IMG/VR virus record: IMGVR_UViG_3300017784_007549
Coordinates: 1 to 64,000 of that record
DNA: 64,000 bases
Origin: a virus
Reading direction: 5' to 3' (one strand)
Under the pieces are notes generated by a model. It did not search any database. It was not told where the DNA came from and saw only the letters and a program-made list of their open reading frames with translations. The stretch's first letter is position 1; every line of letters starts with the position of its first letter. Below are positions 11,686-62,049 of this stretch, piece by piece. The position numbers and the translations under genes were made by a program.

Positions 11686-14265
11686 ATGGCTCAAAATCTT
11701 ATTAGAATAAAACAGATAGATCAAGCAGAATTATCAGGTTTTATTGCCAATAGCTTAAATACTGGTATTCCTCTTTTTATAAATATTACTGGTAATAATA
11801 TTGTTTATACTACTGGAAATCAAACTATTAGCGGGATTAAGACTTTTGCATCTCGTCCAACAGTAAATGGTACAGGAGTTTTATTAAGCGGTGAAGCTGC
11901 AAGTTTACCTAATACTGTAGTTTATACCACTGGATCTCAAAATATAAGTGGAATTAAAACTTTTAGAAATGATATATATTTCTCTAGTGGAATTTACCAT
12001 TCAAATAATAAATTTATATTAGATAACCAAAATATACTACTAAGCGGTAACGACAGAACAGGCACAATTGGAACATCCGTTCTTATTTCAGCTGGTCTCG
12101 CGACTCAACCCGGAACAATTGATTTAAAAGGAAATATTGCTTTAAATTATGGCATACGAAGCGGAACATTAGTATCAATATACAACACAGGATCAACATA
12201 TCCATTCATTAGAACTAGTCGAAATAATAAAATAATAATTGGTGCAGACTTACCTTTTGGTTTGGATCCGCAAGAAATGGTTTATGTAAAAGGAGATGTA
12301 TTCGCAAGTAATTTAGTTTATAATACTGGAGATCAGTTAATACAAAGCGATAAATTTTTTGAACATATCACAGATAGCTCTAGATTATTACCGCTTTTAA
12401 TAAAAGCTTCTGGAAATGCATCTGTAACAGAAGATGGTACTTCCTATCCTGTAAGTGGATATTATGCTTTTAATACAAATTTAAATCTTTATCAACAAAG
12501 TGAACCAGCAGGACCATTTTATATTTTCTTTTGTGATGAAAATAAATGCGTTTCAAATAAATACTCTTGGAGACTTACAACTTCTATAAGTGGCGGAAGA
12601 ACTTTGTATGATAATTATGCTGACTCGGTTCAAAATTACAAAGATCAGGTTTTTCCTAAAACCAGTTGGACACCGTTTTTTGGAGCAAATCCAATTAATT
12701 TTGAATACGCGGATTTATATAGTTTTAATTATACAGACTATGCAGCAGATTTAGCTTTTATTAAAGTTAAAAATAACAGAACTATAGATTTTTTAACCGA
12801 TGAAGGTTATAAAGCGGCAAGTCTTTCTAAAAGTAATCTTTTATTACAAAAAGTTTCTTTTGGAGAAAATGTTAATCTAACCTCTAATTCAGAAATAAGA
12901 TTTAATAATGATCAAGAATTAGCAGAAGAAATTATTTCCATAGGAACAAACGGCATAGATTTAACAAGCTTGAATATAAATCAAAAATCTAATTCATATT
13001 CATTTCATAACGATGACGCCACAGTATCTAATAAGTTTGTTCATGTTTTCAATGAAGTAAATACAACTGGGTATTTAAATGAAGTCGTTAATGGTCAATC
13101 ATTTTTAATAAAAAATTTAAGTAGTGGGAATATTAGAATAAGGCCAGTAGACATTTATAATTCTTATTATTCTGGTTTTACTGGATGGGGAAATAATGAT
13201 TATAAACAAATTAGTTTTAATAATCAAGATGATTTAGATCTTGATATATTAAAAGCTTACACAAAAGCTTCTTATAGTTTAATATTATTAGAAAATGGAA
13301 AAATAACTGGATTAGGTTATGATAGCGCAGGAGAAACATTTCTAGGACGAAAATTAACTGGAGTACTAGATCTAGCCTTAGGATATCAACATGCAATAGC
13401 TAAATTGAATATAAGTGGAAAAATTTCGGGATGGGGCCATGATTTTTATTATCAATCTTCTAAAGGCAATAATTTAACTGGAGTACTAAAAGTAGTAGCA
13501 GGAGATTATCATACTTTAGCTTTATTAAATAATGGTAAAATAACTGGTTGGGGTGCAAATAATTATGGACAAGTAGCAATAACGACAGGGTTTAATGATC
13601 GTTTTGGAGCTTTTACTGGAAATTGGAGTAGTTCTCCTTTGTTTAGCTTATCTAATGTTATAGATATTAGCGCTGGAAATAACTTTTCATTAGCATTATT
13701 AAGTGGGAATGGATATTCTGGATTTGTAACTGGTTGGGGAAATAATAGTTATCGACAACTTGCTTCTGGCCTTAATTTAACTGGCGTAACAAAAATTTCA
13801 GCTGGAACAAATTACGCTTTAGCTATTTTAAATAAAGATCAAAGAGTAACTGGATGGGGAAATAATTTTTATGGTCAAAATCTTTCTGGAAGAAATCTTA
13901 CCGGAGTTTCAAGTATTAGCGCTGGCCAATTTCATTCTTTAGCTATTATAAGTAAAGACCAAAGAGTAACTGGATGGGGTTATAACAATGATGGTCAAAC
14001 TCTTTCTGGACAAAATTTTACTGGAGTCAAACAAGTTAGTGCTGGAGATTTTCAAAGCGTAGCAGTATACTTTCCTAGAGAAAGCGAAAAAGCATTGAGG
14101 GGAAATGAAACTAAACCAAGTTCATCAAAATATTTGGCAACCGAAAAAATAGAAAATGATACAAAATTAATTCTTGCCCCAAAACAATCAGTAGAATTAT
14201 TGGGCGTAAAAAATTCGAGCTATACTGGCTGGATAGTATTGAACACAAGCGCAGGTGTAATATAA
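11686..14265 (+). CDS. Virion fibre/adhesin with RCC1-like beta-propeller repeats
   Basis: ISAG..H.LA....G.VTGWG.N.YGQ repeats; GNQTISGIKTF fibre repeats. Confidence 0.8.
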   Translation: MAQNLIRIKQIDQAELSGFIANSLNTGIPLFINITGNNIVYTTGNQTISGIKTFASRPTVNGTGVLLSGEAASLPNTVVYTTGSQNISGIKTFRNDIYFSSGIYHSNNKFILDNQNILLSGNDRTGTIGTSVLISAGLATQPGTIDLKGNIALNYGIRSGTLVSIYNTGSTYPFIRTSRNNKIIIGADLPFGLDPQEMVYVKGDVFASNLVYNTGDQLIQSDKFFEHITDSSRLLPLLIKASGNASVTEDGTSYPVSGYYAFNTNLNLYQQSEPAGPFYIFFCDENKCVSNKYSWRLTTSISGGRTLYDNYADSVQNYKDQVFPKTSWTPFFGANPINFEYADLYSFNYTDYAADLAFIKVKNNRTIDFLTDEGYKAASLSKSNLLLQKVSFGENVNLTSNSEIRFNNDQELAEEIISIGTNGIDLTSLNINQKSNSYSFHNDDATVSNKFVHVFNEVNTTGYLNEVVNGQSFLIKNLSSGNIRIRPVDIYNSYYSGFTGWGNNDYKQISFNNQDDLDLDILKAYTKASYSLILLENGKITGLGYDSAGETFLGRKLTGVLDLALGYQHAIAKLNISGKISGWGHDFYYQSSKGNNLTGVLKVVAGDYHTLALLNNGKITGWGANNYGQVAITTGFNDRFGAFTGNWSSSPLFSLSNVIDISAGNNFSLALLSGNGYSGFVTGWGNNSYRQLASGLNLTGVTKISAGTNYALAILNKDQRVTGWGNNFYGQNLSGRNLTGVSSISAGQFHSLAIISKDQRVTGWGYNNDGQTLSGQNFTGVKQVSAGDFQSVAVYFPRESEKALRGNETKPSSSKYLATEKIENDTKLILAPKQSVELLGVKNSSYTGWIVLNTSAGVI
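14255..14260 (+). promoter_or_regulatory. GTGTAA putative late promoter
   Basis: 8 nt before ATG 14269. Confidence 0.65.
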
Positions 14266-14268
14266 TTT

Positions 14269-17200
14269 ATGTCAATCTTAAATATTGTAGATTTAAATAA
14301 CAATCAAACAATAAGTGGAGTTAAAACTTTTGCTTCTCGCCCAAGAGTAAATGGCACTGGGGTTTTATTAAGTGGTGAAGTTGGAAATTTACCAAATACT
14401 GTAGTTTATACAACAGGAAATGAAATTATTTCTGGAATTAAAACATTTGCAGAAAACACAACATTTGGTGATACTATACAAGGAGACTTTTTAGTTATTT
14501 CTGGCAATAATTTTACAGTCTACGGAAGTGGTAACTTTACTAGTGGACTTTTTGTAAATGGGAATGCAGTGCTTACTGGAGTTAATTTAAGTTCATATGC
14601 AACAACAGTTAACCTTGCAAGCACAGGTTCGACTCTTGATACAAAAATTAATAATTTAAGTGGAGTTTCAGTATTAACATTTGGCAATCAAATTATTACT
14701 GGAAATAAAATATTTAATTCACTTAGAATAGAGCCATCTGGAAGAATATTTACCCTTGGTACTGGATTAAATATAAATAGTGAAAGTGGAATAGTTAGAA
14801 TTAATACTAATGTAACTTCTTCATTTGGAGCAGGATTTACATATGCTTTAACAACTGGAATGGATCCTAATAGACCATTAGATATTGAAGGACGAGGAAG
14901 ATTGGTTCATGGTTTAAGCCTAGATGCAGGAAGTAATAATTTTACTAATGCTTCAGATCATTTTCATTTATTTTTTTCCGCAGGACCTTCTAATCCCGGA
15001 TCATTTAATGGTGCATATTCAACGGCTACCAGTACAAATTACAAAAGCTATCAATTTTCTCCTACAACAAGACCAAATGGAAACGACAATCTAAGAGATT
15101 TAATTCATTTAACAACATTAGAAGCAAAAGGCGCAAATGATGAAGCATTTCCAACTTCTTCATTAACTGAATTATATTTAACAACAACTGGTACAGTAGT
15201 TACTACTCCTCCCGGAACTGGTTTAGTAGAATTAGCTTATGCAGTAAATAGCCAACCAACTTCTCAATACTTACATGCAACAGGAGACACGGTTTATTTA
15301 AGAGTATTTCCCGGCGTAGCAGGAATTGTTGCAAATACTTATAACGGAACAGTAGTAAGAAGAATTACTGGACTTGATCCAGCATATGGTTCAACAAATG
15401 TTTATAAAGTTGGAGTAGCTCTTGGTGCATTAAATTTTAATAATAATTTTGTTCCAGCTCAAAGAGGCACATCAACTCAAACAGACGCTTGGGCTTTGAG
15501 TAGAAATACAACATCAAGTGCTTTTACTGGCATTAGAAGAATAGAAAGAAACTCTTCCCAATATTTTGATCAATTTAATGTTTTTTATACAACACCAATT
15601 ACAGGTTATACTGGCGAAAGTGTTGTAGTCGACGTTTTCAATAGAAGTAGTGGTACTTTTATAGCTTCTGGGATTAATTTAACACAAGGAAGATATGATG
15701 GATATGTTTCAAGAGTTTTAAACAATACTGGATTAGAAATTACTCTTTCAGTAATGAATTTTGGATCTTTGGGTGGAGTTGGAAGACCCGGAAGCTTCCA
15801 TAATCCAGCTCTAACAACTGGAGTTGGCATTATAAGCTCAGAAGATCTTGTTACTGGAATGCAAATTCTTCGCGGATCATCAGATACTGTTCACAGAAAT
15901 TATTGGGCACATAATGTTTTTGCAGGATTTAGAAATCTTGATGCAAGAGATTTAAATGTTCCAGCAGGAGTTATTACTAGGGTTTCTGTTGGAGGACTAA
16001 ATAGAGTAGAGAGTGGATCAACTTCTGCTATAGGTTTCAATAATAAAGCTTATGGTTTTAATTCTCATGCTTATGGAGCTCACCAAGAAAATTATAATAG
16101 AGATAGCGTTAGAATTGGCGCAACAACTGGATCATATATTAATATAGTAAGTGGCAGAGTTGGAATTAATCTTCAATTTCCAACTGAAGGTTTACATATC
16201 AGTGGATCTAATTTAAAAGTAGAAAATGGCACTGGAATTTTTTCAAATGATGTTATTATTTCTGGTTCTCCAATTTTTGGATTACAAAGTATTGTAATAG
16301 GTTCTGCTAGTTCTATTCTTGGGGGAAGTGGCAATTATGTTACTGGTAGTTTTTCAACAATTGCAGGTGGAAGATTAAATGTTATAACTGGTAATGTAAA
16401 TTTTATTGGTGGTGGAAATACAAATAATCTTTCTGGACTAAATTCAATTATTGGAGGAGGATCTTTCAATAGAATAACTGGAGCATCTGTTACTATAGTT
16501 GGAGGAACTCGTAATCTTGCATGTGGTGGTGCATTTATTGGTGGAGGAGCTAATAATTCTGCGTTGGGCTTTTATTCAAATGCTGTTGGAGGAAGATGTA
16601 ATTCTGCAACTGGAAATTGTTCAATTGTTATTGGTGGATATAGAAATAGCGCAATAGGAGGAAATAGTATTGTTGCTGGAGGATTTTGTAATACTGCAAG
16701 TGGAAATTTTTCAGCAATCGTTGGCGGATGTAATAACTGCGCATGGGGAAATGTTTCATTTATTGGAGGTGGACAATATAATTGCACAATTGATAAAAAT
16801 ACAAGCATTGGAGGAGGATATTTTAATCTTGCATCTGGAGCTTATTCAAATGTCGGGGGTGGAACTTTTGTTGCTGCAGTAGGAATTGCTTCAGTTGTAG
16901 CGGGAGGAAATGCTAATCTCGTAAATGGAAATAATTCATCTATCGTTGGTGGATTTGCAAATGTAGTAAATGGAGACGCTTCATTTCTTGGGGGCGGATA
17001 TCGTAATATAGCATTTGGCGGGAGATCAGTAATTGGCGGAGGAATTTCAAATACTGGTTATTTTACTGGATCAGCAATTGTTGCCGGAGAAGGAAATATT
17101 GTTAGCGGAAGAAATAGTTTTATTGGTGGTGGATGTAGAAATCGTGCAACTGCGGATCAAGCAGTTGTTGGCGGTGGTTTAGGTAATTTTGCTACGGCAA

Positions 17201-19131
17201 CCTCTTCAATTGTAGTGGGCGGACAAGCTAATTGCGCAAGAGATACATCCGCAGCTATTTTAGGAGGAATTCTTAATATTGCGTCAGGACAAGGTTCAAC
17301 CGTAGTTGGAGGTACATCTAATAGAGTTTTTGCAAACTATTCAAATATCACAAATGGAACATGTAATACTATAAATAAAGAAGCAGCTCTTTCAACTATT
17401 GGCGGTGGATATTGTAATACTATTAAAAATGTTTATTCAGTTATTGGCGGAGGATCTTATAATATTGCATCAGGAAATCTTTCAACTATTGGCGGAGGAT
17501 ATAAAAATTGCGCAACAGCAGCTAATGCAACTATTGCCGGAGGAACTTATAATTGCGCAACAGCAGCTTGTTCAACTATTGGTGGAGGATATAAAAATTG
17601 TGCAACAGCAAACCATACAACTGTTGGTGGAGGAATTTATAATTGTGCAACAGCAATTTATTCAAATGTTGCCGGAGGAAATAGTAATATTGCAACAGGA
17701 CACTCTTCGACTGTTGGTGGAGGATATAGAAATTTTGCAATAGCAGAGCACTCAACTGTTGGTGGAGGAAAGTGTAATAAAGCAACAGCAAGCTACTCAA
17801 ATGTTGGCGGAGGAGTTTGTAATTGCGCACAAGGAAATTGTTCAAATATTGGCGGTGGATCTATAAACACCTCATTTGGCGAGAGCTCATTTATTGGAGG
17901 AGGATTTCAAAATACTGGTTATTCTACTGGGTCAGCAATCGTTGGTGGAACAAGAAATTTCGCTAGCGGAGCTTATAGTTTTATTGGTGGCGGATTGTAT
18001 AATCGTGCATTATCAAGTTGTTCAATTGTTGTTGGAGGAACTCGTAATATTGCATCAGGATTTCTTGCAAATGTTGGCGGAGGATATTGTAATATTGCAA
18101 TAGGAAATAGTACAACTATTGGCGGAGGAATTTGTAATTGCGCACAAGGAAATTGTTCAAATATTGTCGGAGGAAGAACTAATTTTACATCAGGAAATCT
18201 TTCAATTATTGGTGGAGGATGTGACAATATTGCAATAGGAACTGCTTCAACTATTGGCGGAGGAAGAAGTAATTCCGCATTAGGAAATAGTGCAACTATT
18301 GGCGGAGGATTTGTAAATTGTACATTATCAAATTGTACAACTGTTGCTGGAGGAAGATTTAATATTGCATCAGGAAATCTTTCAACTATTGGCGGAGGAG
18401 GTGGTAATTGCGCATTAGCAGCTAATGCAACTGTTGGCGGAGGATATCAAAATTGCGCATTAGGAATTAATGCAACTATTGGCGGAGGAAGAGCTAATTG
18501 CGCATTAGGAATTTATTCAACTGTTGGTGGAGGAGGTTATAATTGCTCATCAGGAACATATTCAATTATTGGCGGAGGAAGAAATAATTGTGCACTAGGA
18601 GATTATAGTTACATTATTGGAGGCAGATGTTCTACTGTAAGTGCTCTTCATAGTGGATCAGCAGTTCTTGGAGACGGTCAGTTTCGTGCTCATAATTCTT
18701 TTAGCGAGCATTCTTTAACGCTAGATTTCTTAAACGGAGTATATTTTGCAGGGGGAACTGTAAATGCAAGTACAATAGCAAGAATAAATCAATCTGGATT
18801 TAATCTTGTTAGTGGAAACTTTACTTACCCAGTATTTTCTAACGCTACAGGTTTTGTATTTACTCCAGATGCAAGTACTAGCACATTTTTTGATTATACA
18901 TTATCTGGTAATTCAACTCTTGATCAACCAATCAACATGAATAACGGACAATCTATAACTATATTCTTAACTCAAGATGCTACAGGAAATAGAAGCATGA
19001 GTTTCAATACTGGTTACTTATTTTCTAATGGCATTACTCCGTCATTGAACTTTTTACCAAGCAGCACAGATATTTTACAAGTTATAAGATTAAGAAATAA
19101 ATTATATTCTACATTCGCAAGTAATTATTAA
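14269..19131 (+). CDS. Long fibre protein with Gly/Cys-rich 15-aa beta-helix-like repeats
   Basis: 1620 aa; (S/A)TIGGGxxNCAxxxx repeats; C-terminal ..QDATGNR..SF..PS..TDIL fibre domain. Confidence 0.8.
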   Translation: MSILNIVDLNNNQTISGVKTFASRPRVNGTGVLLSGEVGNLPNTVVYTTGNEIISGIKTFAENTTFGDTIQGDFLVISGNNFTVYGSGNFTSGLFVNGNAVLTGVNLSSYATTVNLASTGSTLDTKINNLSGVSVLTFGNQIITGNKIFNSLRIEPSGRIFTLGTGLNINSESGIVRINTNVTSSFGAGFTYALTTGMDPNRPLDIEGRGRLVHGLSLDAGSNNFTNASDHFHLFFSAGPSNPGSFNGAYSTATSTNYKSYQFSPTTRPNGNDNLRDLIHLTTLEAKGANDEAFPTSSLTELYLTTTGTVVTTPPGTGLVELAYAVNSQPTSQYLHATGDTVYLRVFPGVAGIVANTYNGTVVRRITGLDPAYGSTNVYKVGVALGALNFNNNFVPAQRGTSTQTDAWALSRNTTSSAFTGIRRIERNSSQYFDQFNVFYTTPITGYTGESVVVDVFNRSSGTFIASGINLTQGRYDGYVSRVLNNTGLEITLSVMNFGSLGGVGRPGSFHNPALTTGVGIISSEDLVTGMQILRGSSDTVHRNYWAHNVFAGFRNLDARDLNVPAGVITRVSVGGLNRVESGSTSAIGFNNKAYGFNSHAYGAHQENYNRDSVRIGATTGSYINIVSGRVGINLQFPTEGLHISGSNLKVENGTGIFSNDVIISGSPIFGLQSIVIGSASSILGGSGNYVTGSFSTIAGGRLNVITGNVNFIGGGNTNNLSGLNSIIGGGSFNRITGASVTIVGGTRNLACGGAFIGGGANNSALGFYSNAVGGRCNSATGNCSIVIGGYRNSAIGGNSIVAGGFCNTASGNFSAIVGGCNNCAWGNVSFIGGGQYNCTIDKNTSIGGGYFNLASGAYSNVGGGTFVAAVGIASVVAGGNANLVNGNNSSIVGGFANVVNGDASFLGGGYRNIAFGGRSVIGGGISNTGYFTGSAIVAGEGNIVSGRNSFIGGGCRNRATADQAVVGGGLGNFATATSSIVVGGQANCARDTSAAILGGILNIASGQGSTVVGGTSNRVFANYSNITNGTCNTINKEAALSTIGGGYCNTIKNVYSVIGGGSYNIASGNLSTIGGGYKNCATAANATIAGGTYNCATAACSTIGGGYKNCATANHTTVGGGIYNCATAIYSNVAGGNSNIATGHSSTVGGGYRNFAIAEHSTVGGGKCNKATASYSNVGGGVCNCAQGNCSNIGGGSINTSFGESSFIGGGFQNTGYSTGSAIVGGTRNFASGAYSFIGGGLYNRALSSCSIVVGGTRNIASGFLANVGGGYCNIAIGNSTTIGGGICNCAQGNCSNIVGGRTNFTSGNLSIIGGGCDNIAIGTASTIGGGRSNSALGNSATIGGGFVNCTLSNCTTVAGGRFNIASGNLSTIGGGGGNCALAANATVGGGYQNCALGINATIGGGRANCALGIYSTVGGGGYNCSSGTYSIIGGGRNNCALGDYSYIIGGRCSTVSALHSGSAVLGDGQFRAHNSFSEHSLTLDFLNGVYFAGGTVNASTIARINQSGFNLVSGNFTYPVFSNATGFVFTPDASTSTFFDYTLSGNSTLDQPINMNNGQSITIFLTQDATGNRSMSFNTGYLFSNGITPSLNFLPSSTDILQVIRLRNKLYSTFASNY
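16300..18680 (+). repeat. 45-nt-period coding tandem repeat (approximate bounds)
   Basis: Repeated caactattggcggagga...aattgcgca units. Confidence 0.85.
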
Positions 19132-19133
19132 TT

Positions 19134-22869: not shown

Positions 22870-22876
22870 ATATAAA

Positions 22877-24589: not shown

Positions 24590-24595
24590 TATCTT

Positions 24596-51824: not shown

Positions 51825-51855
51825 AATAAACAAGGGATAAGGAATATAAAGGAAT

Positions 51856-53499
51856 ATGGCATATAATTTTACAGACGCAACACTTCTTGGTTACCAAGTA
51901 AATAAAAATTACTTGGGCGAAGGCGTTTTTGCGCTTAGTACAATAAAAAACATTTCTATAGAGGGCATTCTTGATAATAGATTAACCAATTCAGATTCAG
52001 AAGGTGTTAAAGAAAATTTTCAAAAGATATCAGGATTTTTAACTGGTATTGTAAATGCGTATGATGCAGTTATCGTAAATGGTTATAATTTAGGAACAGG
52101 CAAAGTTAACAACTTATCTTTTCCAGACCAAAACCCAATAAGGCTTGGATCATATAAATATGATATAGAAATTGTTGAAAATTCAGACTTTTCTAATATA
52201 CAAACTGGAGATATTTATGGAACTTTTCTTTCTGGAGTAAATGATAAAATTTTAGCATTAGATGAAACTTTAAATTTTGATAATACCGCAAATGGAGACT
52301 ATTCATATAACCACGATCTTAATATTCAATACTATGATACTGGATCTGATTTATTTACTAAATCTAAAAATTTCGCTAATTCTGTTTATAATGATTCTTT
52401 GAAGTTAGGTTTGATTGGTCCATTTTCTGGATTTTATGATGTATTAAAAACAAAGAAAAACTATTTTTCTGAAACGTACGATTTAATAAGTAAACGATGT
52501 GGATTCTCCAAGAAAATTTTAATTAATAAAAATTACAATAATAACTATACAACCACTTTAAATCATACTATTACTTTGGACGCTAATGGAAAAATTTCAG
52601 TAACAGAACAAGGAGTAATTAAAGGTTTAGACAATACCTTAAACTATACAGCAGATAATTATTTTAATACAGAACTAGCAAATTCATATAATAGATGCCA
52701 AGACGTATTTAATGTTTATGTTGAAAAATATGGATTAGGAGCAAAAGATTCATTATTTAATCAACCATTTAATCTTGGAAAAACTTCTGATTGGTTTAAT
52801 AATTCTTTAGAATATAGCGTTAGTTATGTTAATGATCCAGCTTTTGAAGGAAACGTAATCAATACTTACAATATAACAATAAACAAAGACGTACAAGAGA
52901 TTGGAGTTTATACTGAACAAGGCGAAATAATTCAAGTTGGACAAGTCGGAGATATTACAGGACTTAATTTAATTAAAACAAAATATCAAGCCGCAAAAAC
53001 TAGAGCATCTACAAATTATCCAACTTATAAATTAAGAAATAGTTCATTTAGCGCCGGTACCTTAAATTCAAATTCTACTTCAACCTATAACAATAATTTC
53101 TCTTATTCAATAGAAAAAACAAATGATAATTCTATCTTAGAAGGTGATCCTTATTATAAAAGTTTATCTATGAAAATAGATGATCAAAACCCAACTAATA
53201 TGTATAAAGAATATATCATTGCAAATAAAAATCCAAAAAATGTATTATTCTTATTTGGCAATCAAGTAGAAATTGGCAATAGATCCGTTAATATAAATGG
53301 CACTCTTGTAAGATCAACTAATAACTCTTGGAGTACGCCAATAACTTTTCCATTAGCTGATCTTAAAAGCAAAAGTATATCTGGCGCATTAAATCTTATA
53401 TCAAATGATGCTTATATTGATAATATAAACTATAGTTATGATTCAGATAATAATTTTTCATTTAATCTATCAATCAAATATTTAGATAAGGTGGTATAA
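51856..53499 (+). CDS. Tail tip/distal tail protein (putative)
   Basis: Follows the TMP gene; beta-rich; appears paralogous to the next gene. Confidence 0.55.
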   Translation: MAYNFTDATLLGYQVNKNYLGEGVFALSTIKNISIEGILDNRLTNSDSEGVKENFQKISGFLTGIVNAYDAVIVNGYNLGTGKVNNLSFPDQNPIRLGSYKYDIEIVENSDFSNIQTGDIYGTFLSGVNDKILALDETLNFDNTANGDYSYNHDLNIQYYDTGSDLFTKSKNFANSVYNDSLKLGLIGPFSGFYDVLKTKKNYFSETYDLISKRCGFSKKILINKNYNNNYTTTLNHTITLDANGKISVTEQGVIKGLDNTLNYTADNYFNTELANSYNRCQDVFNVYVEKYGLGAKDSLFNQPFNLGKTSDWFNNSLEYSVSYVNDPAFEGNVINTYNITINKDVQEIGVYTEQGEIIQVGQVGDITGLNLIKTKYQAAKTRASTNYPTYKLRNSSFSAGTLNSNSTSTYNNNFSYSIEKTNDNSILEGDPYYKSLSMKIDDQNPTNMYKEYIIANKNPKNVLFLFGNQVEIGNRSVNINGTLVRSTNNSWSTPITFPLADLKSKSISGALNLISNDAYIDNINYSYDSDNNFSFNLSIKYLDKVV

Positions 53500-53500
53500 A

Positions 53501-55117
53501 ATGGCTGATACAATTATAAAATATAATAATAAAACAATACCATTTCCAACGCCACTAGTTACGTTAGAAAGAGAAAATCTTTACTATAATCAATACTGGG
53601 GAAATTCTGATAAAATTGTTTTAAATGGACAAATTAGTGGCACAAAAAATTGTTCTCCATTTGCTTCAATAACGAGTGGTCAAACTGGACTGTTAGGCAT
53701 ATTTAATCAAAATTTTGGAACTTTTGAAATATATGAAGATGCACAAAAAATTTATGAAAATAGTGGCATCATAGTAAGATCTATAAATTTTAATGAATCT
53801 ACTTATGCAGGATTAATAGATTATACAATAGAATTAAATTCAACTAGACCTAGTGGCGATATTATTGATCCAAGTAATGAATATAGTTTTACTGAAAATG
53901 AAAATAAAACAGTATCTTTATCTCATAATGTTTCCGCTAAAGGAATCAACACAAATTTAAATCCAAGCAAATCTAATGCAATAAATAATGCTATATCTTT
54001 TGTTAGATCTAATACTGGGCTAGCAAATGTTCCAACTACTAAATTTATATCTGGAGCAAGCAATAAATTTTATTTACAGAATTTTTCTGAATCAATAGAT
54101 AGATTGAATAATGTCTATTCTGTTCAAGAAACCTATCTTAGCAATCTTTTAAATACAGGATCATCTGGTAGTTTAACTTATACTTCCGATATAACATCTG
54201 GCGCAGATTCTAATATAGTTCAAATCAATTTACGTGGACAATATAAAGGCCAAAAGAACGGTAATATAAATGATTTAAGAAATAGTTTAAATGTAACTGG
54301 ACTATTATCTGGAATCTATTCTGGTTATTATAATCCAACCCCAATTCAGTATAATGTAACAGAAAATACTGGCGAAAATTTAATTAATTTTGATTATTCT
54401 TTTGATAATTTAAACCTTCCTAATCCATACTTTAAATATGATGCAAATATATCTAGAGATGAAATTCAACAACTTTACAATATTCAAGTAAGAGGAGATA
54501 TTATAGCAAGAGGCAATAGGGCTTATAGATATTTCTTATCAACGGGAAATTTAATCAATTTAACTGGTCAATTATTAAGTGTCGCTAGTGGTATTTTAAC
54601 TGGATTTAAAGACTTTAATAGTGATGCAGTGCCTTCTAATTTGAGATTATTAAATGTAAGTATTGATCAAAATCCTAATAACGGCACAGTTTCAGCAAAT
54701 GCATCGTATGATGATAGATTTATGCCTACTGGTAATTTTGTTGATGCTACTTATAATGTGTCAGTAGAAGCGCCTCATTGGTATATGAATAATCAACCAA
54801 CTTGCAATATTAAGGGTTATCACATAATAAATGATTTTGATATTACGACTTTACCTAAATTAAATATTAATACTACATTTAAAGCTAAAGATATCAAAGG
54901 AACAAGCACTGAATCTGGTTTAAAGCAGTTAGCCTCAACTCTTACAAATAATCTTGTTCCAACTAATTATAATTATAATACTCAATTAAAAGCTACTGAA
55001 TCGTATAATAAAAAATATAATAATATGACCTCATTAAGCGAAATATCTTATAAATTAGACAAAATAGATATTTCTAATGAAAATTCTTTACTACCAAAAT
55101 TCAATACTATAACTTAA
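53501..55117 (+). CDS. Tail tip/hub protein (putative)
   Basis: Position; similarity to the previous gene. Confidence 0.55.
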   Translation: MADTIIKYNNKTIPFPTPLVTLERENLYYNQYWGNSDKIVLNGQISGTKNCSPFASITSGQTGLLGIFNQNFGTFEIYEDAQKIYENSGIIVRSINFNESTYAGLIDYTIELNSTRPSGDIIDPSNEYSFTENENKTVSLSHNVSAKGINTNLNPSKSNAINNAISFVRSNTGLANVPTTKFISGASNKFYLQNFSESIDRLNNVYSVQETYLSNLLNTGSSGSLTYTSDITSGADSNIVQINLRGQYKGQKNGNINDLRNSLNVTGLLSGIYSGYYNPTPIQYNVTENTGENLINFDYSFDNLNLPNPYFKYDANISRDEIQQLYNIQVRGDIIARGNRAYRYFLSTGNLINLTGQLLSVASGILTGFKDFNSDAVPSNLRLLNVSIDQNPNNGTVSANASYDDRFMPTGNFVDATYNVSVEAPHWYMNNQPTCNIKGYHIINDFDITTLPKLNINTTFKAKDIKGTSTESGLKQLASTLTNNLVPTNYNYNTQLKATESYNKKYNNMTSLSEISYKLDKIDISNENSLLPKFNTIT

Positions 55118-55118
55118 T

Positions 55119-56927
55119 ATGAAATTAGAATTTATAACAGGATATTTAAGCGATAACCAAAGAAATACAGGTTCATTAGAAATTTATTATGATTTTAGTG
55201 GAATATCTGGTTTTTTCGTTCCTAATAGGTTATATGGAAATCAAACTCAATTTAATAAAATAGGGGGTGGATTTACTGCCAATAGTGAGTATCATCCCGG
55301 AATTTTCGTATCATGTTACCAACAAAGTGGGTTTACTGGCTCTGGAATTTTCGAAGGAACAAATAACCTCAAAGTACTAAATCAACTGAGTGGAAATAAT
55401 TTGAGTTTGTTTTATAATTTTGGTGCATTAAATTGTAATAAAAATTTTTCAATAGGACCAAAACAAATAAATATACCAACTGGTCAAATTCAAGTTTTAA
55501 GTTATATTGAATCTGCTAGTTCGAACAATAATCCTTTTGAAATGATCTTGGGTTTAAATGACGCTTATAAATTAACATTAGAATTTTCTGGCAAAATTAA
55601 TAATAGTTCTGTTGAAAATTATAAGTTAACAAACGTCAGCGAATTATCTTTTCAAAATGTTGGAACCCTAAGATTAAATGATAAAAATGTAGAGTTCACA
55701 TATTTTGATATAATTGAAGATGAGATTTATAATAAAATTTTAAATTTAACTGGATCATATTTTAATCAAGATAAAAATATTTATATAGGGAATATACCTA
55801 CTGGAAAATATAGAAATGGATATACTGGATTTATTGGAATTGTAGATGATTTTGTTGCATTTGATGAATATTTTGATGCTAATTTTTGCGCAGGGCTTTC
55901 AAGACTCTTTGTGAAAACTGGAAATAGAGTTGAAACATTAAATTTAACTGGAGTTAAATATAATATAATACAAAGTGGTTTTTTAAATCCAACTGGCATC
56001 TTAGGAACAGGAATTACTGGATATCAAATTGTAGCTTCTAATGAAATTATAAATTCTAGTTGTGGAGATAATTGCATTGTTTATGTTAAATCTGGAATAA
56101 CAGGATTAATTACTGGAGAAAAAATAGAATATCGTGTTGTTGGACAAGAAGAATATACAACAATACAAAAACAAATAAAATACAATTTATATGATCAAGA
56201 TTATGCTGCAAGATTTACAAAAGATTATATAGTATTCACGCCTCAATTAGATAGTAAAGATGTATTTAATATTCAATTATATAAAGATGTTGATACTAAA
56301 GTAGAAGTACCAGATTACGCTATTTTAAGTAAAAATTATTTAACACAAGATACTTTGACGGATAGAAATCTATTAATATTTTTCAATGGAGTAAATATTT
56401 CTTCTGGTAGTTATCAAATAATTGGAAGTGATACAAGATTTATTATAAATAATTATGATAAAGACTCTAAAGATTTTGTATCTTATAGTTTATCTAGTTT
56501 TTCAGATATAGAAAATTATCTTTTTAATTTTGATGATAATGATCCTGCGGTTGGAAATTACATTCTTATAACTAATCTAAATAATAAAAAATATGATGTA
56601 TTCTTAAATGGTCAAAAATTAGTATCTGGACTTAATTATATAAATTCTGGAATAAATAATTCTTTATATTTGAATAAAAATTTACCAGATGGGACATTAT
56701 ATATTACTCAAGACAATTTTGATTATGAAGTAACTGGTTCAAATTTAAAATTATATCATTCTACCGAAAATTATAATAATGAAAGAATTTGGCTAAATGG
56801 CATTTTCCAAAACAAAAATGAAAATTACTTATTAACTTCTTGTATTAATGCTATGCTTCAAGCCACTGGTGATATTGAAGCTAAAGATGAAAGTATATTC
56901 AATAATGAATACTATAGATTTATTTAA
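55119..56927 (+). CDS. Tail tip protein with a LamG-like N-terminal region
   Basis: LEIYYDFSG...IYIGN...GFIGIVDDF; VFLNGQKL repeats. Confidence 0.5.
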   Translation: MKLEFITGYLSDNQRNTGSLEIYYDFSGISGFFVPNRLYGNQTQFNKIGGGFTANSEYHPGIFVSCYQQSGFTGSGIFEGTNNLKVLNQLSGNNLSLFYNFGALNCNKNFSIGPKQINIPTGQIQVLSYIESASSNNNPFEMILGLNDAYKLTLEFSGKINNSSVENYKLTNVSELSFQNVGTLRLNDKNVEFTYFDIIEDEIYNKILNLTGSYFNQDKNIYIGNIPTGKYRNGYTGFIGIVDDFVAFDEYFDANFCAGLSRLFVKTGNRVETLNLTGVKYNIIQSGFLNPTGILGTGITGYQIVASNEIINSSCGDNCIVYVKSGITGLITGEKIEYRVVGQEEYTTIQKQIKYNLYDQDYAARFTKDYIVFTPQLDSKDVFNIQLYKDVDTKVEVPDYAILSKNYLTQDTLTDRNLLIFFNGVNISSGSYQIIGSDTRFIINNYDKDSKDFVSYSLSSFSDIENYLFNFDDNDPAVGNYILITNLNNKKYDVFLNGQKLVSGLNYINSGINNSLYLNKNLPDGTLYITQDNFDYEVTGSNLKLYHSTENYNNERIWLNGIFQNKNENYLLTSCINAMLQATGDIEAKDESIFNNEYYRFI

Positions 56928-56963
56928 TAGTGTAAATATAGATAGGTATAAGGAGCAAGGTTC

Positions 56964-59264
56964 ATGCCAATAAGATCTATTGAAAAGATTAAGATAGGTA
57001 ATTACCCAGATGGTAAGTTCGCAAATGGATATATATACTCTGCTCAAATTAGTCAAGGATATAGCGAAAACTCTAATAAATTAACAATTGATATCGTTTA
57101 TGAACAAAATGCAAATATCGTATTACCTGATAAAAATTTAACTACTTCTTATAGAGTCCAATTTGGAGATATTGTTTTTCCTCAAATGTATTTTATTGCT
57201 CATTCTAAAAGCGTAGGGGTAAATGAAGAAACAATTACTTGTACTTTTTCGGATAATTCAGTTTTACTTGATAGATATTTTGTTGGACTTACAAATAGAC
57301 ATTATAGAATTGGAGAAAATAATGGGGCATTTAATGTAAGTGTAATTTGTGCTAATTGTGATAATACAATAGGAATAAGAAATGGAAATGTTTTTAGAGC
57401 CGTAGCAAGTTCTCCTAATCTTTTAGTAAATAATCTTTTAGTTGTTGGCGATGAAGAGTTTGTTGATCAAGCTTGTGATGTGCCAGATGTTAAATATAAC
57501 TTTACAAGCCTTCTTGCTACGATGGCAAAAATACCTAATTTTTCTTTTAAAAATTTTACGGATATAAATCCAAATTATAGAACTTCTTATACAGGAACTC
57601 TCAGGGAAGTTTTATCTAATTGGTGCTCTGATTTTGGTTTTAGTTTTTATTGGGATTTTATAAGTAATAGTTTAATTTGTATCGATCTTAGAGATCCAAT
57701 AGATTTAACTCCTGTTTCAAATTTTATAACAGAAAATTTTAATCAAGCAAATTCAATCTCAAATTTACCTGTATCAAATTATTCTGAGCAAGAAAGTTTA
57801 GAGGGTACATACCAACAAGATAATATTGATTTTGTTTTAAAACCTTCTAGGACGAAAGAAAGACAATTTGTAGATTTTTTTCCAATAACATACAATTGTT
57901 TAACTGTAGAAAATGCCTTTTCAAATGATTATTTTAATTATGGAAGTGCTTTTAGAATTGGTTGTGTTTTAGCAAAATATAATCAACAAGCAAGAACCTT
58001 GTATCATTTACAAGGTAATAGATATGGGCTTGTTGGTTTTAATTTAGTATACAATGGTATAGAAACTTATGTTTTGCAAAATGTTTTAAAAAACATAAAT
58101 GAATTTTATTATTCTGGTGGTCCAACGAGAATAATATTAGGAATTTATAATCAAAGTGTCGATCTAGCAAATGGAGATCGAGAGGCTGCGATTGCTAGTA
58201 ATTTTATAGGAAAATATTATTATAATGCAAACTATGTAAAATGGAAAGACTTATATTGCGATAATAATGCTAGACTAACCTTATCAACAACAGTTGTGCC
58301 AGATCCAGACTGTACTAGTCCTCTTCCTTGGAAAGAATATGGCGGAACATATGTTCCTCCCGGAGTAGGAGTTAATTGTTTACACACTAGAGGAGGGGCT
58401 GCTTACTCAGAAAGTAATGTTGAGGGTTTTAATATGGATAATATAGGACCAATATTTACTAATATTGAAGGAGAATTGGCTGACCAAGTATACAATGCTC
58501 TTTTAACTATAAATCGATTTGACCCAAAACCAGATAGATATAGAGGTTTAACAATTATTGCTTATAAACCTTTATTATCAGTAAGTTCTACTAATAATAA
58601 TTATAATTCTGCAGAAGAAGGTTTTATACCAGCTCAATATGAATCTAATCAGATTTTTGGATGTTCAACTGTTTGCGAAAAAGATGCTGGATCTGAAATT
58701 TGCAGTAGAGTTTGCACAAGACTATCTACTCCAAATTATGGTTTAGTTAGTAAACTATCTGGTGGAATATTCGTAACGAATTTATTTAATAATTCAAATA
58801 TGAGTATAGTTTTTCCATCTGAACAAAGTTATTTAGGTTATATAAAAGCCGAAGGAACTCTATATTATACAGAAAAGGGAATTAAGGCGATGAATCTTAC
58901 TAGTAATACTAATTTTAAAGTAGATCCAAATGCGATGGCTTATTCAATTAATCTAAATGATATAACCACAGAAGAACCATCTGTAGGAACTTTAAATATT
59001 AAAACAATTGATCAAAATAGTAATGAACTAAGTATTGTGCAGAAAAATTCTAGAAAGAATATTTCTTTAAAAATAATTGGAATGAATTATGGTAATCTCA
59101 ATAGTTATCTTAATCCTCAATCTGGTTTGACTAGTTTGAATGTTTATTTAAATGATAATGGCGTATTTACAGATTTAAATTTTGAAAATAGACCTGCTCA
59201 AAAATCAAAAGCTGAAGTAGTTATGCAAAAGATTGGGCCACAAAAAATAAGGGTTATAAAATAA
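56964..59264 (+). CDS. Cys-rich tail tip/central hub protein (putative)
   Basis: 766 aa; GTLREVLSNWCSDFGFSFYWD hub-like segment; GTGTAA at 56930. Confidence 0.5.
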   Translation: MPIRSIEKIKIGNYPDGKFANGYIYSAQISQGYSENSNKLTIDIVYEQNANIVLPDKNLTTSYRVQFGDIVFPQMYFIAHSKSVGVNEETITCTFSDNSVLLDRYFVGLTNRHYRIGENNGAFNVSVICANCDNTIGIRNGNVFRAVASSPNLLVNNLLVVGDEEFVDQACDVPDVKYNFTSLLATMAKIPNFSFKNFTDINPNYRTSYTGTLREVLSNWCSDFGFSFYWDFISNSLICIDLRDPIDLTPVSNFITENFNQANSISNLPVSNYSEQESLEGTYQQDNIDFVLKPSRTKERQFVDFFPITYNCLTVENAFSNDYFNYGSAFRIGCVLAKYNQQARTLYHLQGNRYGLVGFNLVYNGIETYVLQNVLKNINEFYYSGGPTRIILGIYNQSVDLANGDREAAIASNFIGKYYYNANYVKWKDLYCDNNARLTLSTTVVPDPDCTSPLPWKEYGGTYVPPGVGVNCLHTRGGAAYSESNVEGFNMDNIGPIFTNIEGELADQVYNALLTINRFDPKPDRYRGLTIIAYKPLLSVSSTNNNYNSAEEGFIPAQYESNQIFGCSTVCEKDAGSEICSRVCTRLSTPNYGLVSKLSGGIFVTNLFNNSNMSIVFPSEQSYLGYIKAEGTLYYTEKGIKAMNLTSNTNFKVDPNAMAYSINLNDITTEEPSVGTLNIKTIDQNSNELSIVQKNSRKNISLKIIGMNYGNLNSYLNPQSGLTSLNVYLNDNGVFTDLNFENRPAQKSKAEVVMQKIGPQKIRVIK

Positions 59265-59265
59265 T

Positions 59266-62049
59266 ATGATTTTTAGTGGAAATAATTATTTATCATTAAG
59301 TTACCAAACTGGTTTATCTTTTAATGTAGATGTAGCAGTAGATAATTTAAATGGTAATTGTAACTTAGGTTTTAGTGGACAAAATAAAAATTTAAATTTT
59401 AAATTTGATCAGGGCAAAATTTTTGATCCAGAAAATAGACTAGTTTATTTTTACGAAGCAAATGAAAATATTAATATATCTGGAGATATTTCTCCCAATA
59501 AATATTCCTATTATATAAATAATGATCCTATTTGTTTGAATGGAAATAAAACTTCTTATACGATAAGTGGATATTATGTTAATACATCAAATTGTAGCGC
59601 TGATTCAAAAGTGATAATTCAAGGAGCAAGGCCAACCTATAGTTTAAATTTAAGTCCAATTTTTTATATAACTGGAATAAATTATCTTACTGGATCTATA
59701 AATAATGGTAATAATTTAAATTTTCAAATATATAGTGGTTCTGTTTCAATTCCAGAAGGCTTTACTATTCAAAATATATCAAATTTTGTAACCAACACGG
59801 GTTATTTTCAAATTAACCACTATCCAATTACTAGTGGTCAGTTAGAAGACGAAAGACTATATGAAGTACAATTAAATCTTTTTACAAATTTTGGAGAAGT
59901 TACTGAGAATTTTACAACGACAGGTTCTTATTCAGGTTATGTTAATGTTAATTTGGATGTGTCCAATATATCAGATTTTTTTACAAGAACTGGAATTCAA
60001 ACTGGCCTTGGAAACTTTAAAGATAATAATTTTTCTACAACTTTTAGTATTATAAGTGGAAGTTTAAGGTCTGCTCCAACAGAATTAAATAAATATCTAC
60101 ATGTAAAATTAGAATATAGTGGTGGAAATACTGGTAATTTTAATTATAATATTTTTGCAACTGGATATAGAAATGATACTATAACTGGATTTATAAGTGG
60201 TACAGGATTTTTATCTAAACGAATTAGTTTTGCTGGAACTGGATATGATGATATTTCTGGCATTTCTAGAACAGGATTTATAACTGGAGTAATAGGGAAT
60301 TCATTTGCTATTAACGGGTCAACTAATCAAAATGTTAATATAATATATTCTGGTTATATAAATGATTATCTTGTTACTACAGCTTCTAGAATAACGATAA
60401 GTGGTGCAGCAATAAATGGAGAATTAAATTACTATAGCTATTTATATATAAATGAGTATAATGATACAGTCAATATCAGTGGAAATGATTTAAGAACTGG
60501 TGATTTTTTTGGATCTTCTGTTGCAGGAACTTTAGGCCAATTAGTTATAATTGGTAGTCCGGGGTCTGATCTTAATACATATAGAGATGCAGGTAGTATA
60601 TACATTTTCACTGGTTCAAATACAGGGCTTTCTCAAGTAGCTAAAATAACTGGAGATAATTTACGTACTGGAGATGGATTTGGCTCAAGTTTAGCCGCAA
60701 GTACTAATGGAAATATTATTTACGTTGGAGCAACTGGTAAAAAAATCAACGGAATAAATTCAGTTACTGGTGGGGCAGTTTTTATATTTACTGGAAATTA
60801 TTTGATAAATTCATGGGTACAAGATATGATGCTAACTGGAAGTGACGCAAGCGGAATAGATTTATTTGGATATTCAGTAGCCAATAATATAACAAATAAT
60901 ATTTTAAGCGTAGGTGCGCCAAATAAAAAAATAGGAAACTCTTCTTCTGCTGGTGCTGCTTACCTTTTTACTGGAAACGGAATAGATTTTTGGTCACAAT
61001 GGTCTGGAAAAATCACTGGTCAAGATACGGCTGCTGGAGATAGTTTTGGTTTTTCAACAAAAATTTCTGATAATGGACAGAATATCTTCGTAGGTGCACC
61101 AAATGATACTCTAGGATCATATACAAATGCTGGAGCAGTTTATATTTTTACTGGCAATGCAATAGATTTTTGGGCCCAATCATTAAAAATAACAGGATCA
61201 AGATTAAATACTAATCATGGATTTGGACATTCAATATCTATAAATTCGAACGGAAGAATTATTGCTATAGGCGCAACTGGAAGCAATTTAGCTTCAGGAA
61301 ATGTTTATGTATTCACTGGAAATGGTACAAATTTGTGGAGAGAAAGTCAAATATTAACTGGAAGTGATTTAAATTCTAATGCTCAATTTGGGTATTCAAT
61401 TAAAATGAATCCAGATGCGACGAAACTTTTAGTTGGCGCAGTTAATAGAACTGTGGGAGGAAGTACATCGGCGGGAAGTATTTATGTATTTACTGGTCAA
61501 AATGGTTTTTGGATTCAAGATAGATTAATCACAGGAAATTTAATTCAAAATAATAAAAAATTAGGATATTCATTAGATTTCTTTAATAATGAATCTTCGA
61601 TAATTGCTGGAATACCGCTTTATGATAACAATACTTATGCAGACTGTGGATTAGTAAAAAGATTCGATTACTTACAACTTTCTGGTTTTATAGAAAAAAT
61701 TATAGCCACAGGAAATATATCTTCAACTAATTCCTATTTAGCTACTGGAAATATTACTGGAAATTCATATAAAAGAATTTTTACAGAAGCATTTAATTTA
61801 CTTACTGGTTTTTATATAAGCGGCAATCCAACTGGATTGGTAGATTTTTCAGCTAATAATTATATACAAAATGGATATTATGTGAGAAGTGGAATAATAA
61901 ATACTGGAATTAATAATATTTTTATTCAAGTTAAAACTAAAAATTATCCTGATATTAATGTATTGACGGGAAAATTAACTATTAGTGGTTATACTTTAGA
62001 TAATAAAAGTAATAACATTGATATACAATATATAACAGGAGCAAGGTAA
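59266..62049 (+). CDS. Tail protein with an FG-GAP-like beta-propeller
   Basis: Repeated FG.S......VGAP....AGAVYIFTG units. Confidence 0.8.
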   Translation: MIFSGNNYLSLSYQTGLSFNVDVAVDNLNGNCNLGFSGQNKNLNFKFDQGKIFDPENRLVYFYEANENINISGDISPNKYSYYINNDPICLNGNKTSYTISGYYVNTSNCSADSKVIIQGARPTYSLNLSPIFYITGINYLTGSINNGNNLNFQIYSGSVSIPEGFTIQNISNFVTNTGYFQINHYPITSGQLEDERLYEVQLNLFTNFGEVTENFTTTGSYSGYVNVNLDVSNISDFFTRTGIQTGLGNFKDNNFSTTFSIISGSLRSAPTELNKYLHVKLEYSGGNTGNFNYNIFATGYRNDTITGFISGTGFLSKRISFAGTGYDDISGISRTGFITGVIGNSFAINGSTNQNVNIIYSGYINDYLVTTASRITISGAAINGELNYYSYLYINEYNDTVNISGNDLRTGDFFGSSVAGTLGQLVIIGSPGSDLNTYRDAGSIYIFTGSNTGLSQVAKITGDNLRTGDGFGSSLAASTNGNIIYVGATGKKINGINSVTGGAVFIFTGNYLINSWVQDMMLTGSDASGIDLFGYSVANNITNNILSVGAPNKKIGNSSSAGAAYLFTGNGIDFWSQWSGKITGQDTAAGDSFGFSTKISDNGQNIFVGAPNDTLGSYTNAGAVYIFTGNAIDFWAQSLKITGSRLNTNHGFGHSISINSNGRIIAIGATGSNLASGNVYVFTGNGTNLWRESQILTGSDLNSNAQFGYSIKMNPDATKLLVGAVNRTVGGSTSAGSIYVFTGQNGFWIQDRLITGNLIQNNKKLGYSLDFFNNESSIIAGIPLYDNNTYADCGLVKRFDYLQLSGFIEKIIATGNISSTNSYLATGNITGNSYKRIFTEAFNLLTGFYISGNPTGLVDFSANNYIQNGYYVRSGIINTGINNIFIQVKTKNYPDINVLTGKLTISGYTLDNKSNNIDIQYITGAR

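Follow-up and report, generated by a model that had tools for sequence, protein, structure and literature searches.

Several tail and fibre proteins encoded by an uncultured aquatic phage carry a pronounced excess of the dipeptides Thr-Gly (TG) and Ser-Gly (SG), collectively termed [ST]G here. The stretch of DNA analysed (hereafter the window) comprises the first 64 kb of IMG/VR virus record IMGVR_UViG_3300017784_007549, a 109,312-bp sequence with ~30% GC content that is estimated to be 72% complete. The signature is real, conserved and lineage-specific, and it is present in a defined subset of tail-tip, baseplate and fibre proteins. We consider these dipeptides to be candidate acceptor sites for phage-encoded O-glycosylation, and we place the probability of this reading at roughly 0.4. 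That sugars are attached, which enzyme is responsible, what the sugar is, and how the phage benefits (through shielding or tuning of its receptor-binding proteins) are matters that we infer from the patterns described below.

Expected dipeptide counts were obtained from composition-preserving shuffles of each protein, and all 36 plus-strand proteins encoded in 11686-62049 were used as an unselected pool to avoid an after-the-fact choice of examples. When all 400 dipeptides were ranked in this pool, TG was at the top (215 observed versus 121.5 expected) and SG was second (227 versus 146.6). The most depleted dipeptide was Asn-Gly (NG; 96 versus 151.2), and Asp-Gly (DG) was also low. The FG-GAP propeller protein (59266-62049, +; 927 amino acids (aa); Pfam FG-GAP_2, 1e-44) carries 61 [ST]G sites, with 40 TG (shuffle mean 9.9, z = 10.7), 21 SG (11.4, z = 3.1) and only four of the reversed dipeptide Gly-Thr (GT; 9.9), such that Gly follows half of all its Thr residues. 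This protein matches PF14312 with 150.4 bits (cut-off 23) over six stretches. An earlier sequence-only reading of this DNA had counted about 40 TG, 21 SG and 4 GT by hand in this protein, which proves exact, and had argued that composition alone does not explain them, which the shuffles bear out. The directionality that it proposed stands for TG but does not extend to SG, because Gly-Ser (GS) is itself above expectation in the FG-GAP protein (18 versus 11.6).

Five proteins besides the FG-GAP protein have TG z-scores of 3.3 to 8.0. A fibre or baseplate protein (11686-14265, +) that combines BppL_N-type motifs at its N-terminus with an RCC1 propeller (Pfam RCC1_2, 3e-33; BppL_N, 7e-11) contains 23 TG versus 6.4 expected (z = 7.5) and 19 SG versus 9.0, with the motif TGWG in every blade. 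Its scores against the RCC1 models PF13540 and PF00415 (RCC1_2, 113.2 bits; RCC1, 26.5 bits) are above the gathering score. A fibre protein with a collagen-like start (31462-34371, +) is built from ~12 copies of a ~24-residue repeat, each with one TG and one SG (TG 35 versus 13.4, z = 6.4; SG 34 versus 16.1). A virion structural protein (34401-35264, +; PHROG 5838) is TG-rich as well (9 versus 3.4), as are two tail-tip proteins that lack repeats. The first of these (53501-55117, +) has 9 TG versus 3.0 and 11 SG versus 3.3, and has homologues in the distant relatives G008 and G009. The second (55119-56927, +) belongs to no Pfam family and is strongly TG-rich (16 versus 3.1, z = 8.0), with 42% of its Thr residues preceding Gly. 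A more moderate [ST]G excess is present in a large fibre-cluster protein with a DUF5122 beta-propeller repeat (19134-22778, +; SG 21 versus 10.1, z = 4.0; TG 16 versus 9.5).

The z-scores are inflated by repeats, since each FG-GAP blade contributes about two TG and the 31462 repeat recurs ~12 times. However, the excess is also present outside the FG-GAP repeats, in residues 1-400 (TG 14 versus 3.5) and residues 801-927 (8 versus 1.3). In five proteins, 49-63% of glycines are preceded by Ser or Thr, compared with 8-10% in the tail-tip protein at 56964-59264 (+) and in the tape measure. Before Gly, Asp and Asn are depleted to about half of expectation (observed/expected ratio (O/E) ~0.5), as are nearly all residues other than Ser and Thr. 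The residue preceding [ST]G is Ile, Leu or Phe at about twice expectation, and position +3 after [ST]G is not enriched, so the window proteins show no [ST]-G-x-[ST] extension. The TG-rich proteins of the window mostly lack similarity to one another by BLAST, with only the N-terminal modules of the 11686, 14269 and 31462 proteins held in common. In the TG-rich genes, 148 copies of the hexamer ACNGGN are in frame, whereas two are out of frame and the opposite strand contains nine. This almost exclusive in-frame occurrence indicates that the signal acts on protein rather than on DNA. Of these 148 TG pairs, 63 are encoded by ACT-GGA, the favoured codon pair, and across seven TG-rich genes the Thr of TG is encoded by ACT in 72% of cases versus 52% for all Thr.

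Several other proteins of this phage show no such excess. The large terminase (7884-9728, +; Pfam Terminase_6N), used as a non-virion control, contains no TG, and the internal tape measure protein (46548-51824, +; matching twelve tape-measure PHROGs), used as a negative control, has 6 versus 8.4. A capsid candidate (29535-30602) has one versus 2.3. These scarcities had been noticed in the sequence-only reading. The tail-tip protein at 56964-59264, although encoded between two TG-rich genes, is poor in both dipeptides (TG 1 versus 3.1; SG 3 versus 4.4). It matches no Pfam or PHROG family and may be a buried part of the tail or an enzyme. A Gly-rich fibre (14269-19131, +), which has its N-terminal module in common with the 11686 and 31462 proteins, serves as an internal contrast without TG excess (31 versus 25.9), and five tandem paralogues (35249-39300; 260-280 aa each) likewise show none. 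Two Thr- and Gly-rich proteins encoded on the genome's other arm likewise lack the excess (8 versus 11.6 and 8 versus 14.1). Thus, the earlier proposal that [ST]G saturates otherwise unrelated folds is true for some six to eight proteins, but not for several other members of the structural modules. A 'modified virion coat' is too broad a description, given how little TG the capsid candidate and several proteins of the structural modules contain.

Comparisons among relatives indicate how these sites evolve. In orthologues of the FG-GAP protein, the Gly of each site is nearly invariant and the Thr exchanges chiefly with Ser. At 39% identity, the Thr of TG is retained as Ser or Thr in 74% of cases versus 27% for other Thr residues. 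About 40 of the 61 sites are held in common at this distance, with ~20 lost and ~20 gained, and the total remains steady at 56-62. Changes to the other hydroxyl residue account for 51% (Thr sites) and 41% (Ser sites) of changes versus 19% and 17% elsewhere, and replacements by Val, Ile or Ala are rare. When sites are lost, both residues change in 69 cases, the hydroxyl residue alone in 27, and Gly alone in 19. These substitution patterns suggest that selection acts jointly on the hydroxyl residue and the glycine.

The pattern also persists in more distant relatives. Proteins resembling the 55119 protein remain rich at 25-29% identity (TG 19 versus 7.4 and 17 versus 5.2), and in relatives G008 and G009, whose GC contents are 39.6% and 37.3%, both the 55119-like proteins and proteins resembling the N-terminal part of the FG-GAP protein stay rich (for example, SG 25 versus 9.1). 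Conversely, homologues of the 56964 protein are TG-poor in G008 (5 versus 6.0), G009 (0 versus 3.2) and G007 (1 versus 3.1). Because the same proteins are rich or poor in distant relatives of different GC content, the pattern is protein-specific and stable down to 25-30% identity.

The two propeller families permit comparisons in which the fold is held constant. Of 120 FG-GAP homologues, 13 are phage orthologues of ~927 aa that are 39-94% identical, and all of these have TG at an O/E of 3-5. The other 103 FG-GAP_2 homologues, which are mostly of cellular type, have TG at 0.83 (median 0.70) and similar levels of SG and GS. Among RCC1 homologues, a class of 61 proteins defined by TGWG in almost all blades, which includes the 11686-14265 protein, has O/E values of 3.17 for TG, 1.71 for SG, 0.66 for GT, 0.58 for NG and 0.55 for DG, and TG remains in excess outside the propeller (399 versus 155). 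In contrast, 59 cellular-type RCC1 homologues usually carry VAWG or VGWG and have TG at 0.72 and DG at 2.52. These two sets of homologues rule out inheritance of the signature with the fold. Nor is it a general trait of phage fibres or of marine virions: neither the long and short fibres and baseplate proteins of T4 nor the tail module of Marinobacter phage PS6, a cultured marine phage, shows an excess, the RCC1 protein of this module included, and NG and DG are normal or high in both. The comparison with homologous domains thus came out as the sequon idea predicts, with no enrichment in cellular or other-phage homologues. The motifs cited for that idea are present (ITGWG, NLTGV, YIFTG, KITG and NLASTGSTL...KINSLSG), and NLTGV does occupy a fixed position in the RCC1 repeat; however, Ser or Thr is already found at this position in cellular homologues (LSNV, LTNV, LSGV).

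An AlphaFold2 model of the FG-GAP protein was used to locate the sites. The propeller, with its four-stranded blades, is modelled at predicted local distance difference test (pLDDT) values of 76-95, whereas residues 120-346 and 816-927 are modelled poorly. About half of the sites of this protein fall in regions with pLDDT below 50 when it is modelled as a monomer, and these low-confidence regions are compatible with intertwined trimeric parts. In the model, 16 of the 27 confidently placed sites lie within two residues of the C-terminal end of a strand, compared with 12 of 64 other Ser and Thr residues. The two recurrent TG of each blade are predicted to close its third and fourth strands, which we take to be the outer strands of the propeller.

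The phage also encodes enzymes that could act on such sites, as the sequon idea had supposed. Directly after the first three fibre genes lies a sulfotransferase gene (22877-23686, +; Pfam Sulfotransfer_3, 5e-20; Sulfotransfer_1, 1e-14), which overlaps and is translationally coupled to a gene for a GT9-like glycosyltransferase of the GT-B type (23668-24555, +). We regard this 295-aa protein as a candidate protein O-glycosyltransferase on the basis of fold and homologue matches. The protein itself has no Pfam, NCBIfam or PDB sequence match and does not reach PF01075, but five of 39 of its homologues match this family (best E 1.3e-6), and 714 homologues were found in total. With a profile, its best PDB match is the heptosyltransferase WaaF. 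Its AlphaFold2 model (pLDDT 92.9) has as top Foldseek matches the GT9 structure 3tov, WaaF (1psw) and WaaC (E 4e-11 to 5e-8), followed by TibC (4rb4 and 4rap). GT9 enzymes carry a conserved N-terminal Gly-Asp that includes the catalytic base, and the family of the 23668 protein has a nearly invariant G-G-x-G-K at a putatively equivalent N-terminal position. The order of fibre gene followed by GT9-like gene recurs in the unrelated small Pelagibacter phage HTVC111P (MN698245.1, 24562-27878), where the final base of the tail fibre gene is also the first of the GT9-like homologue (gp52/gp53), and further homologues are found in marine phages. The sulfotransferase weakly matches a single NCBIfam family, that of the nodulation protein NoeE, which sulfates a sugar, and the score falls well short of the family threshold (E 2e-5).

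A second set of candidates is encoded on the opposite strand just past the tail-tip module. This trio begins with a conserved 266-aa protein (62840-63640, -) that lacks a Pfam match and is 57-95% identical in relatives G007, G008 and G009, with the gene order kept. The next gene encodes a GT9 glycosyltransferase whose C-terminal end lies inside the window (63665-64000, -; the gene extends to genome position 64804) and which matches PF01075 (4.7e-11, 42.9 bits, cut-off 22). It is followed beyond the window by a 645-aa GT4-type glycosyltransferase (genome 64795-66732, -) that belongs to clusters whose members are 97-100% viral. Within this pair of glycosyltransferases, PF00534 is matched as well (6e-7). 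The trio is kept in all three relatives at 30-96% identity. The 645-aa enzyme carries a CxxC-x14-CxxC finger (Cys275, 278, 293 and 296) before the C-terminal lobe of its GT-B fold, and this finger is invariant in the three relatives, in which the protein is 51-96% identical. Neither the GT9 protein at 63665 nor the 23668 protein contains a CxxC, and the 266-, 379- and 645-aa proteins of the trio have no PDB sequence match.

Further sugar genes form an island at genome 77.7-96.5 kb, which encodes a GDP-mannose dehydratase, epimerases, two DegT aminotransferases, a hexapeptide acetyltransferase and an FkbM methyltransferase, together with GT1-, GT2- and GT61-family proteins and DUF5672. No transmembrane segment is predicted in any protein of this island. 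The GT61 protein (genome 95434-96510) matches PF04577 with 56.5 bits (cut-off 27). It has seven close homologues, no similarity to any solved structure by sequence or profile, and no alignment with EOGT or POMGNT2. DNA hypermodification is unsupported as a target of these sugar genes, as no gene of a thymidylate-synthase or hydroxymethylase family was found in the 109 kb of this 72% complete record.

From these observations, a mechanism can be proposed in which the recognized unit would be the two residues [Ser/Thr]-Gly, usually following Ile, Leu or Phe and situated mostly at the C-terminal ends of beta-strands, as judged from the confident part of the FG-GAP model. The hydroxyl group would be the acceptor for a soluble, cytoplasmic phage O-glycosyltransferase that reads strand-turn-strand motifs before or during tail assembly. 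Candidate initiating enzymes would be the GT9 and 645-aa virus-only pair, whose genes converge on the tail-tip module, and the operon of sulfotransferase and GT9-like protein after the first fibre cluster, while the 77.7-96.5 kb island would supply or extend the glycan. Because one dipeptide converges across dissimilar proteins, substitutions are hydroxyl-specific, and Asp and Asn are depleted before Gly, an outside factor shared by these proteins and acting on the hydroxyl is favoured. Together with the presence of soluble glycosyltransferase genes at both fibre modules, this favours acceptor sites. A fuller scenario, which we advance tentatively and as less likely than not, holds that hydrophobic-[Ser/Thr]-Gly at strand ends is a minimal sequon used by the GT9-type enzyme and the virus-only glycosyltransferase with its Cys4 finger. 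Sulfation and extension by the ~20-kb island would follow, and a virus-made, possibly sulfated glycan would coat the tail proteins with which a large clade of aquatic phages binds its receptors. Overall, the sequon interpretation of the sequence-only reading is partly supported, and its analogy with the Ser-Gly attachment site of glycosaminoglycans adds nothing.

A number of observations weigh against acceptor sites. The 14269 fibre, the 56964 protein, the five paralogues and the capsid candidate lack the signature. Thr dominates the sites in the window, whereas TibC modifies Ser and not Thr. In the RCC1 propeller, the Thr of TGWG stands where cellular homologues have Val, Ile or Ala, and this position may be buried. 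An invariant glycine and a position at a strand end are equally expected of a structural turn, and Asn is the commonest non-hydroxyl replacement in the orthologues, as expected if turn caps are interchangeable. Carriers of GT9-like genes in other lineages are only mildly enriched in TG (HTVC111P fibre, 22 versus 12.5; AG-345-L05, 46 versus 26.2), and fragments from a sister lineage (20-24% complete) encode TG-rich fibres with no GT9 or sulfotransferase gene on the contig. No relative lacking both the enzymes and the signature was found among four family members and the sister-lineage contigs (11-24% complete). Because all four family members in which the region is covered carry both the glycosyltransferase pair and the signature, there is no informative negative for covariation. 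Finally, the sugar genes could act instead on glycans of the host envelope.

Several of these points are what would be expected if the dipeptide were an unmodified structural habit, in which the lineage favours hydrophobic-[ST]-Gly for closing a strand and entering a tight turn or, in a trimeric shaft, a corner, with the hydroxyl as backbone cap and the glycine adopting the conformation of the turn. The sugar genes would then have a different role, for example in altering glycans on the host surface. We regard this explanation as a serious contender, short of probable yet nearly as likely as acceptor sites, since a motif that caps strands would account for most of these data. The location of sites at the C-terminal ends of strands, the almost invariant glycine, and the lead of Asn among non-hydroxyl replacements all fit a strand cap. 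Ser and Thr are normal at the 'L-[ST]-x-V' position of cellular RCC1 homologues, and about half of the FG-GAP sites lie in regions with pLDDT below 50, as expected of intertwined trimeric shafts. The absence of enrichment in the capsid candidate and the mild TG excess in GT9-like carriers of other lineages are consistent with it as well. However, the motif is absent from homologous propellers that fold in cells and in a different marine phage, and T4 fibres do without it. Asp and Asn are common turn-capping residues, and yet both are depleted before Gly in these proteins rather than interchangeable with Ser and Thr. Thr is rarely replaced by Val or Ile, and the recurrence of the same dipeptide in mutually dissimilar proteins of one virion points to an outside factor rather than to descent.

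The depletion of NG and DG raises a different explanation, according to which selection removes Asn-Gly and Asp-Gly, the pairs that most readily form succinimides, from extracellular tail proteins, which are long-lived, and chemically stable Ser-Gly and Thr-Gly turns are used instead. NG is the most depleted dipeptide of the pool and DG is low, both are reduced in the 61 proteins of the TGWG class, and NG is scarce (12 versus 30.6) in the 14269 fibre as well, although TG is not in excess there. On the other hand, NG and DG are normal or high in the PS6 tail proteins, in T4 fibres, and in other FG-GAP and RCC1 homologues. Moreover, avoidance of chemical ageing leaves unexplained both the preference for Thr over Ser and the depletion of nearly all other residues before Gly, and we consider it improbable as the cause of the signature.

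Still less probable is another modification of the hydroxyl, such as phosphorylation or O-sulfation by one of the phage sulfotransferases. The hydroxyl is indeed the conserved feature of the sites, and the sulfotransferase gene is translationally coupled to the GT9-like gene after the fibre genes. However, the pairing of this enzyme with a glycosyltransferase suggests a sulfated sugar, its weak NCBIfam match is to the sugar-sulfating NoeE, and to our knowledge dense sulfation of Ser and Thr has no precedent in bacteria or phages. An artefact of composition, repeat copies or a DNA motif was tested and can be set aside with near certainty: although repeats multiply a few positions and ACT-GGA is preferred, the first two are ruled out by shuffles that keep composition, by enrichment in non-repeat proteins and segments, and by the flat Thr- and Gly-rich controls, and the third by the near absence of the hexamer out of frame and on the other strand.

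The genes discussed above are part of a plus-strand series that begins with genes for PhoH, a sigma factor, an ERCC4 nuclease and the large terminase, and continues with three large fibre-like genes (11686-22778). These are followed by the sulfotransferase gene, genes of the head region, further fibre genes, the gene for the tape measure (1758 aa), and the tail-tip module (51856-62661). The order of the tail genes suggests that the phage is long-tailed. Its terminase is just 25% identical to the closest cultured terminases. The gene for DNA polymerase III alpha appears to be split (genome 67300-71491, -) into a gene of 871 aa with catalytic, finger and helix-hairpin-helix parts and a gene of 248 aa with the PHP part, with a gene for an RNase T-type exonuclease between them.

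Some features of the fibre and tail proteins were noted in passing. The 31462-34371 fibre contains a short collagen-like Gly-X-Y run, GPQGPAGPQGVIGPSGARGAP, at about residues 33-55, and the spacing of Leu and Ile in its repeat units resembles that of a coiled coil interrupted by TG and SG. The 14269 fibre (1620 aa, 17% Gly) is rich in Gly-Gly (90 versus 47), Asn-Cys (19 versus 3.8) and Cys-Ala (12 versus 2.7) and has a weak match to an antifreeze beta-roll, which suggests a Cys-containing solenoid repeat. The five paralogues have their N-terminal ~100 residues in common and divergent middles. A reversed bias toward GT is present in the paralogue at 38518-39300 (8 versus 2.9), in a protein at genome 102653-104719, and in a 674-aa protein encoded beside the FG-GAP orthologue of relative G007 (G007:C1:18840-20864, -; 25 versus 9.4), which has no TG or SG. 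These GT-biased proteins may consist of collagen-like Gly-Thr-X or other repeats.

If [ST]G dipeptides are indeed acceptor sites, tailed phages would possess a general O-glycosylation code, readable from sequence, on the very proteins that decide host range. The 'orphan' glycan clusters of aquatic phages, usually assumed to remodel the host surface, would gain a function, and the fraction of glycines that follow Ser or Thr would provide a simple index for predicting decorated virion proteins. Glycoengineering of folded beta-proteins would also gain new soluble enzymes. Should the sites prove unmodified, a strong convergent dipeptide rule across dissimilar proteins of one virion still calls for a structural or chemical explanation, since the rule is left unexplained by fold requirements, base composition, T4 or cellular homologues. 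We found no description of a Ser/Thr-Gly signature in phage tail proteins, or of such a sequon, in the literature searched. This window adds the fold-controlled comparisons in two propeller families, the analysis of hydroxyl-specific changes and coupled losses, the GT9-like fold, the pair of GT9 and Cys4-finger glycosyltransferases, and a motif link to EOGT.

Among known systems, the heptosyltransferases AAH and TibC, which are GT9-type enzymes encoded beside their substrates, densely modify Ser residues in the turns of beta-helices; one mapped TibA site reads N-S-G-G, and Thr is left unmodified (PMC4358343). AAH and TibC, which act on AIDA-I, TibA and Ag43 with ADP-heptose as the donor, are soluble cytoplasmic GT-B enzymes beside all-beta substrates. 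Similarly, the neighbours of the phage GT9-like genes encode all-beta proteins in which [ST]G sites recur roughly once per 15 residues, and the structure search with the 23668 protein has TibC among its hits. However, lipopolysaccharide heptosyltransferases match the 23668 protein better than TibC does, and the candidate substrates here are virion proteins rather than autotransporters. The hallmarks of autotransporter heptosyltransferases are an N-terminal beta-barrel, a beta-hairpin thumb, and also a Cys4 iron-finger that sits within the catalytic domain, and the phage GT9 proteins do not display them. Specifically, the 295-aa 23668 protein lacks the beta-barrel or any extra N-terminal domain as well as the CxxC finger. 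TibC recognizes and holds its protein substrate by means of the Cys4 iron-finger, and among the phage candidates the 645-aa GT4-type protein alone has a Cys4 finger.

A second parallel is offered by EOGT, an O-GlcNAc transferase of the GT61 family that modifies the consensus C5-X-X-G-(Y/F/L)-(T/S)-G-X2-3-C6 in a beta-hairpin of a folded domain (PMC5388531; PMC13123520). GT61 protein O-glycosyltransferases carry an N-R-R constellation that binds uridine diphosphate, and a catalytic His (PMC13123520). The segment (Y/F/L)-(T/S)-G of this consensus equals the local hydrophobic-[TS]-G motif of the phage proteins, and the phage encodes a GT61 protein above the Pfam threshold. Nevertheless, EOGT acts in the eukaryotic endoplasmic reticulum on epidermal growth factor domains framed by disulfides (Cys5-Cys6), whereas the phage sites have no cysteine frame, and some members of the GT61 family have polysaccharides as their substrates. 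An attempt to link the phage GT61 protein to EOGT failed, given its seven close homologues and lack of a PDB match.

Decoration of virion proteins by phages themselves has a precedent. In mycobacteriophages, glycans are reported at the C-terminal ends of the capsid and tail-tube subunits (Freeman et al. 2023, as cited in PMC12619734), and phage glycosyltransferases reportedly decorate the phages' own virion proteins in the host cytoplasm, as we propose here. In the present phage, however, the capsid candidate contains little TG, and the putative sites are distributed through tail-tip and fibre proteins at the ends of strands. The virus-borne sugar-nucleotide pathway and the many glycosyltransferases of this phage also resemble the glycan clusters of giant viruses and marine phages. 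Such clusters in marine phages are usually read as serving to remodel the host surface. In chloroviruses and mimiviruses, genes of this kind glycosylate capsid or fibril proteins.

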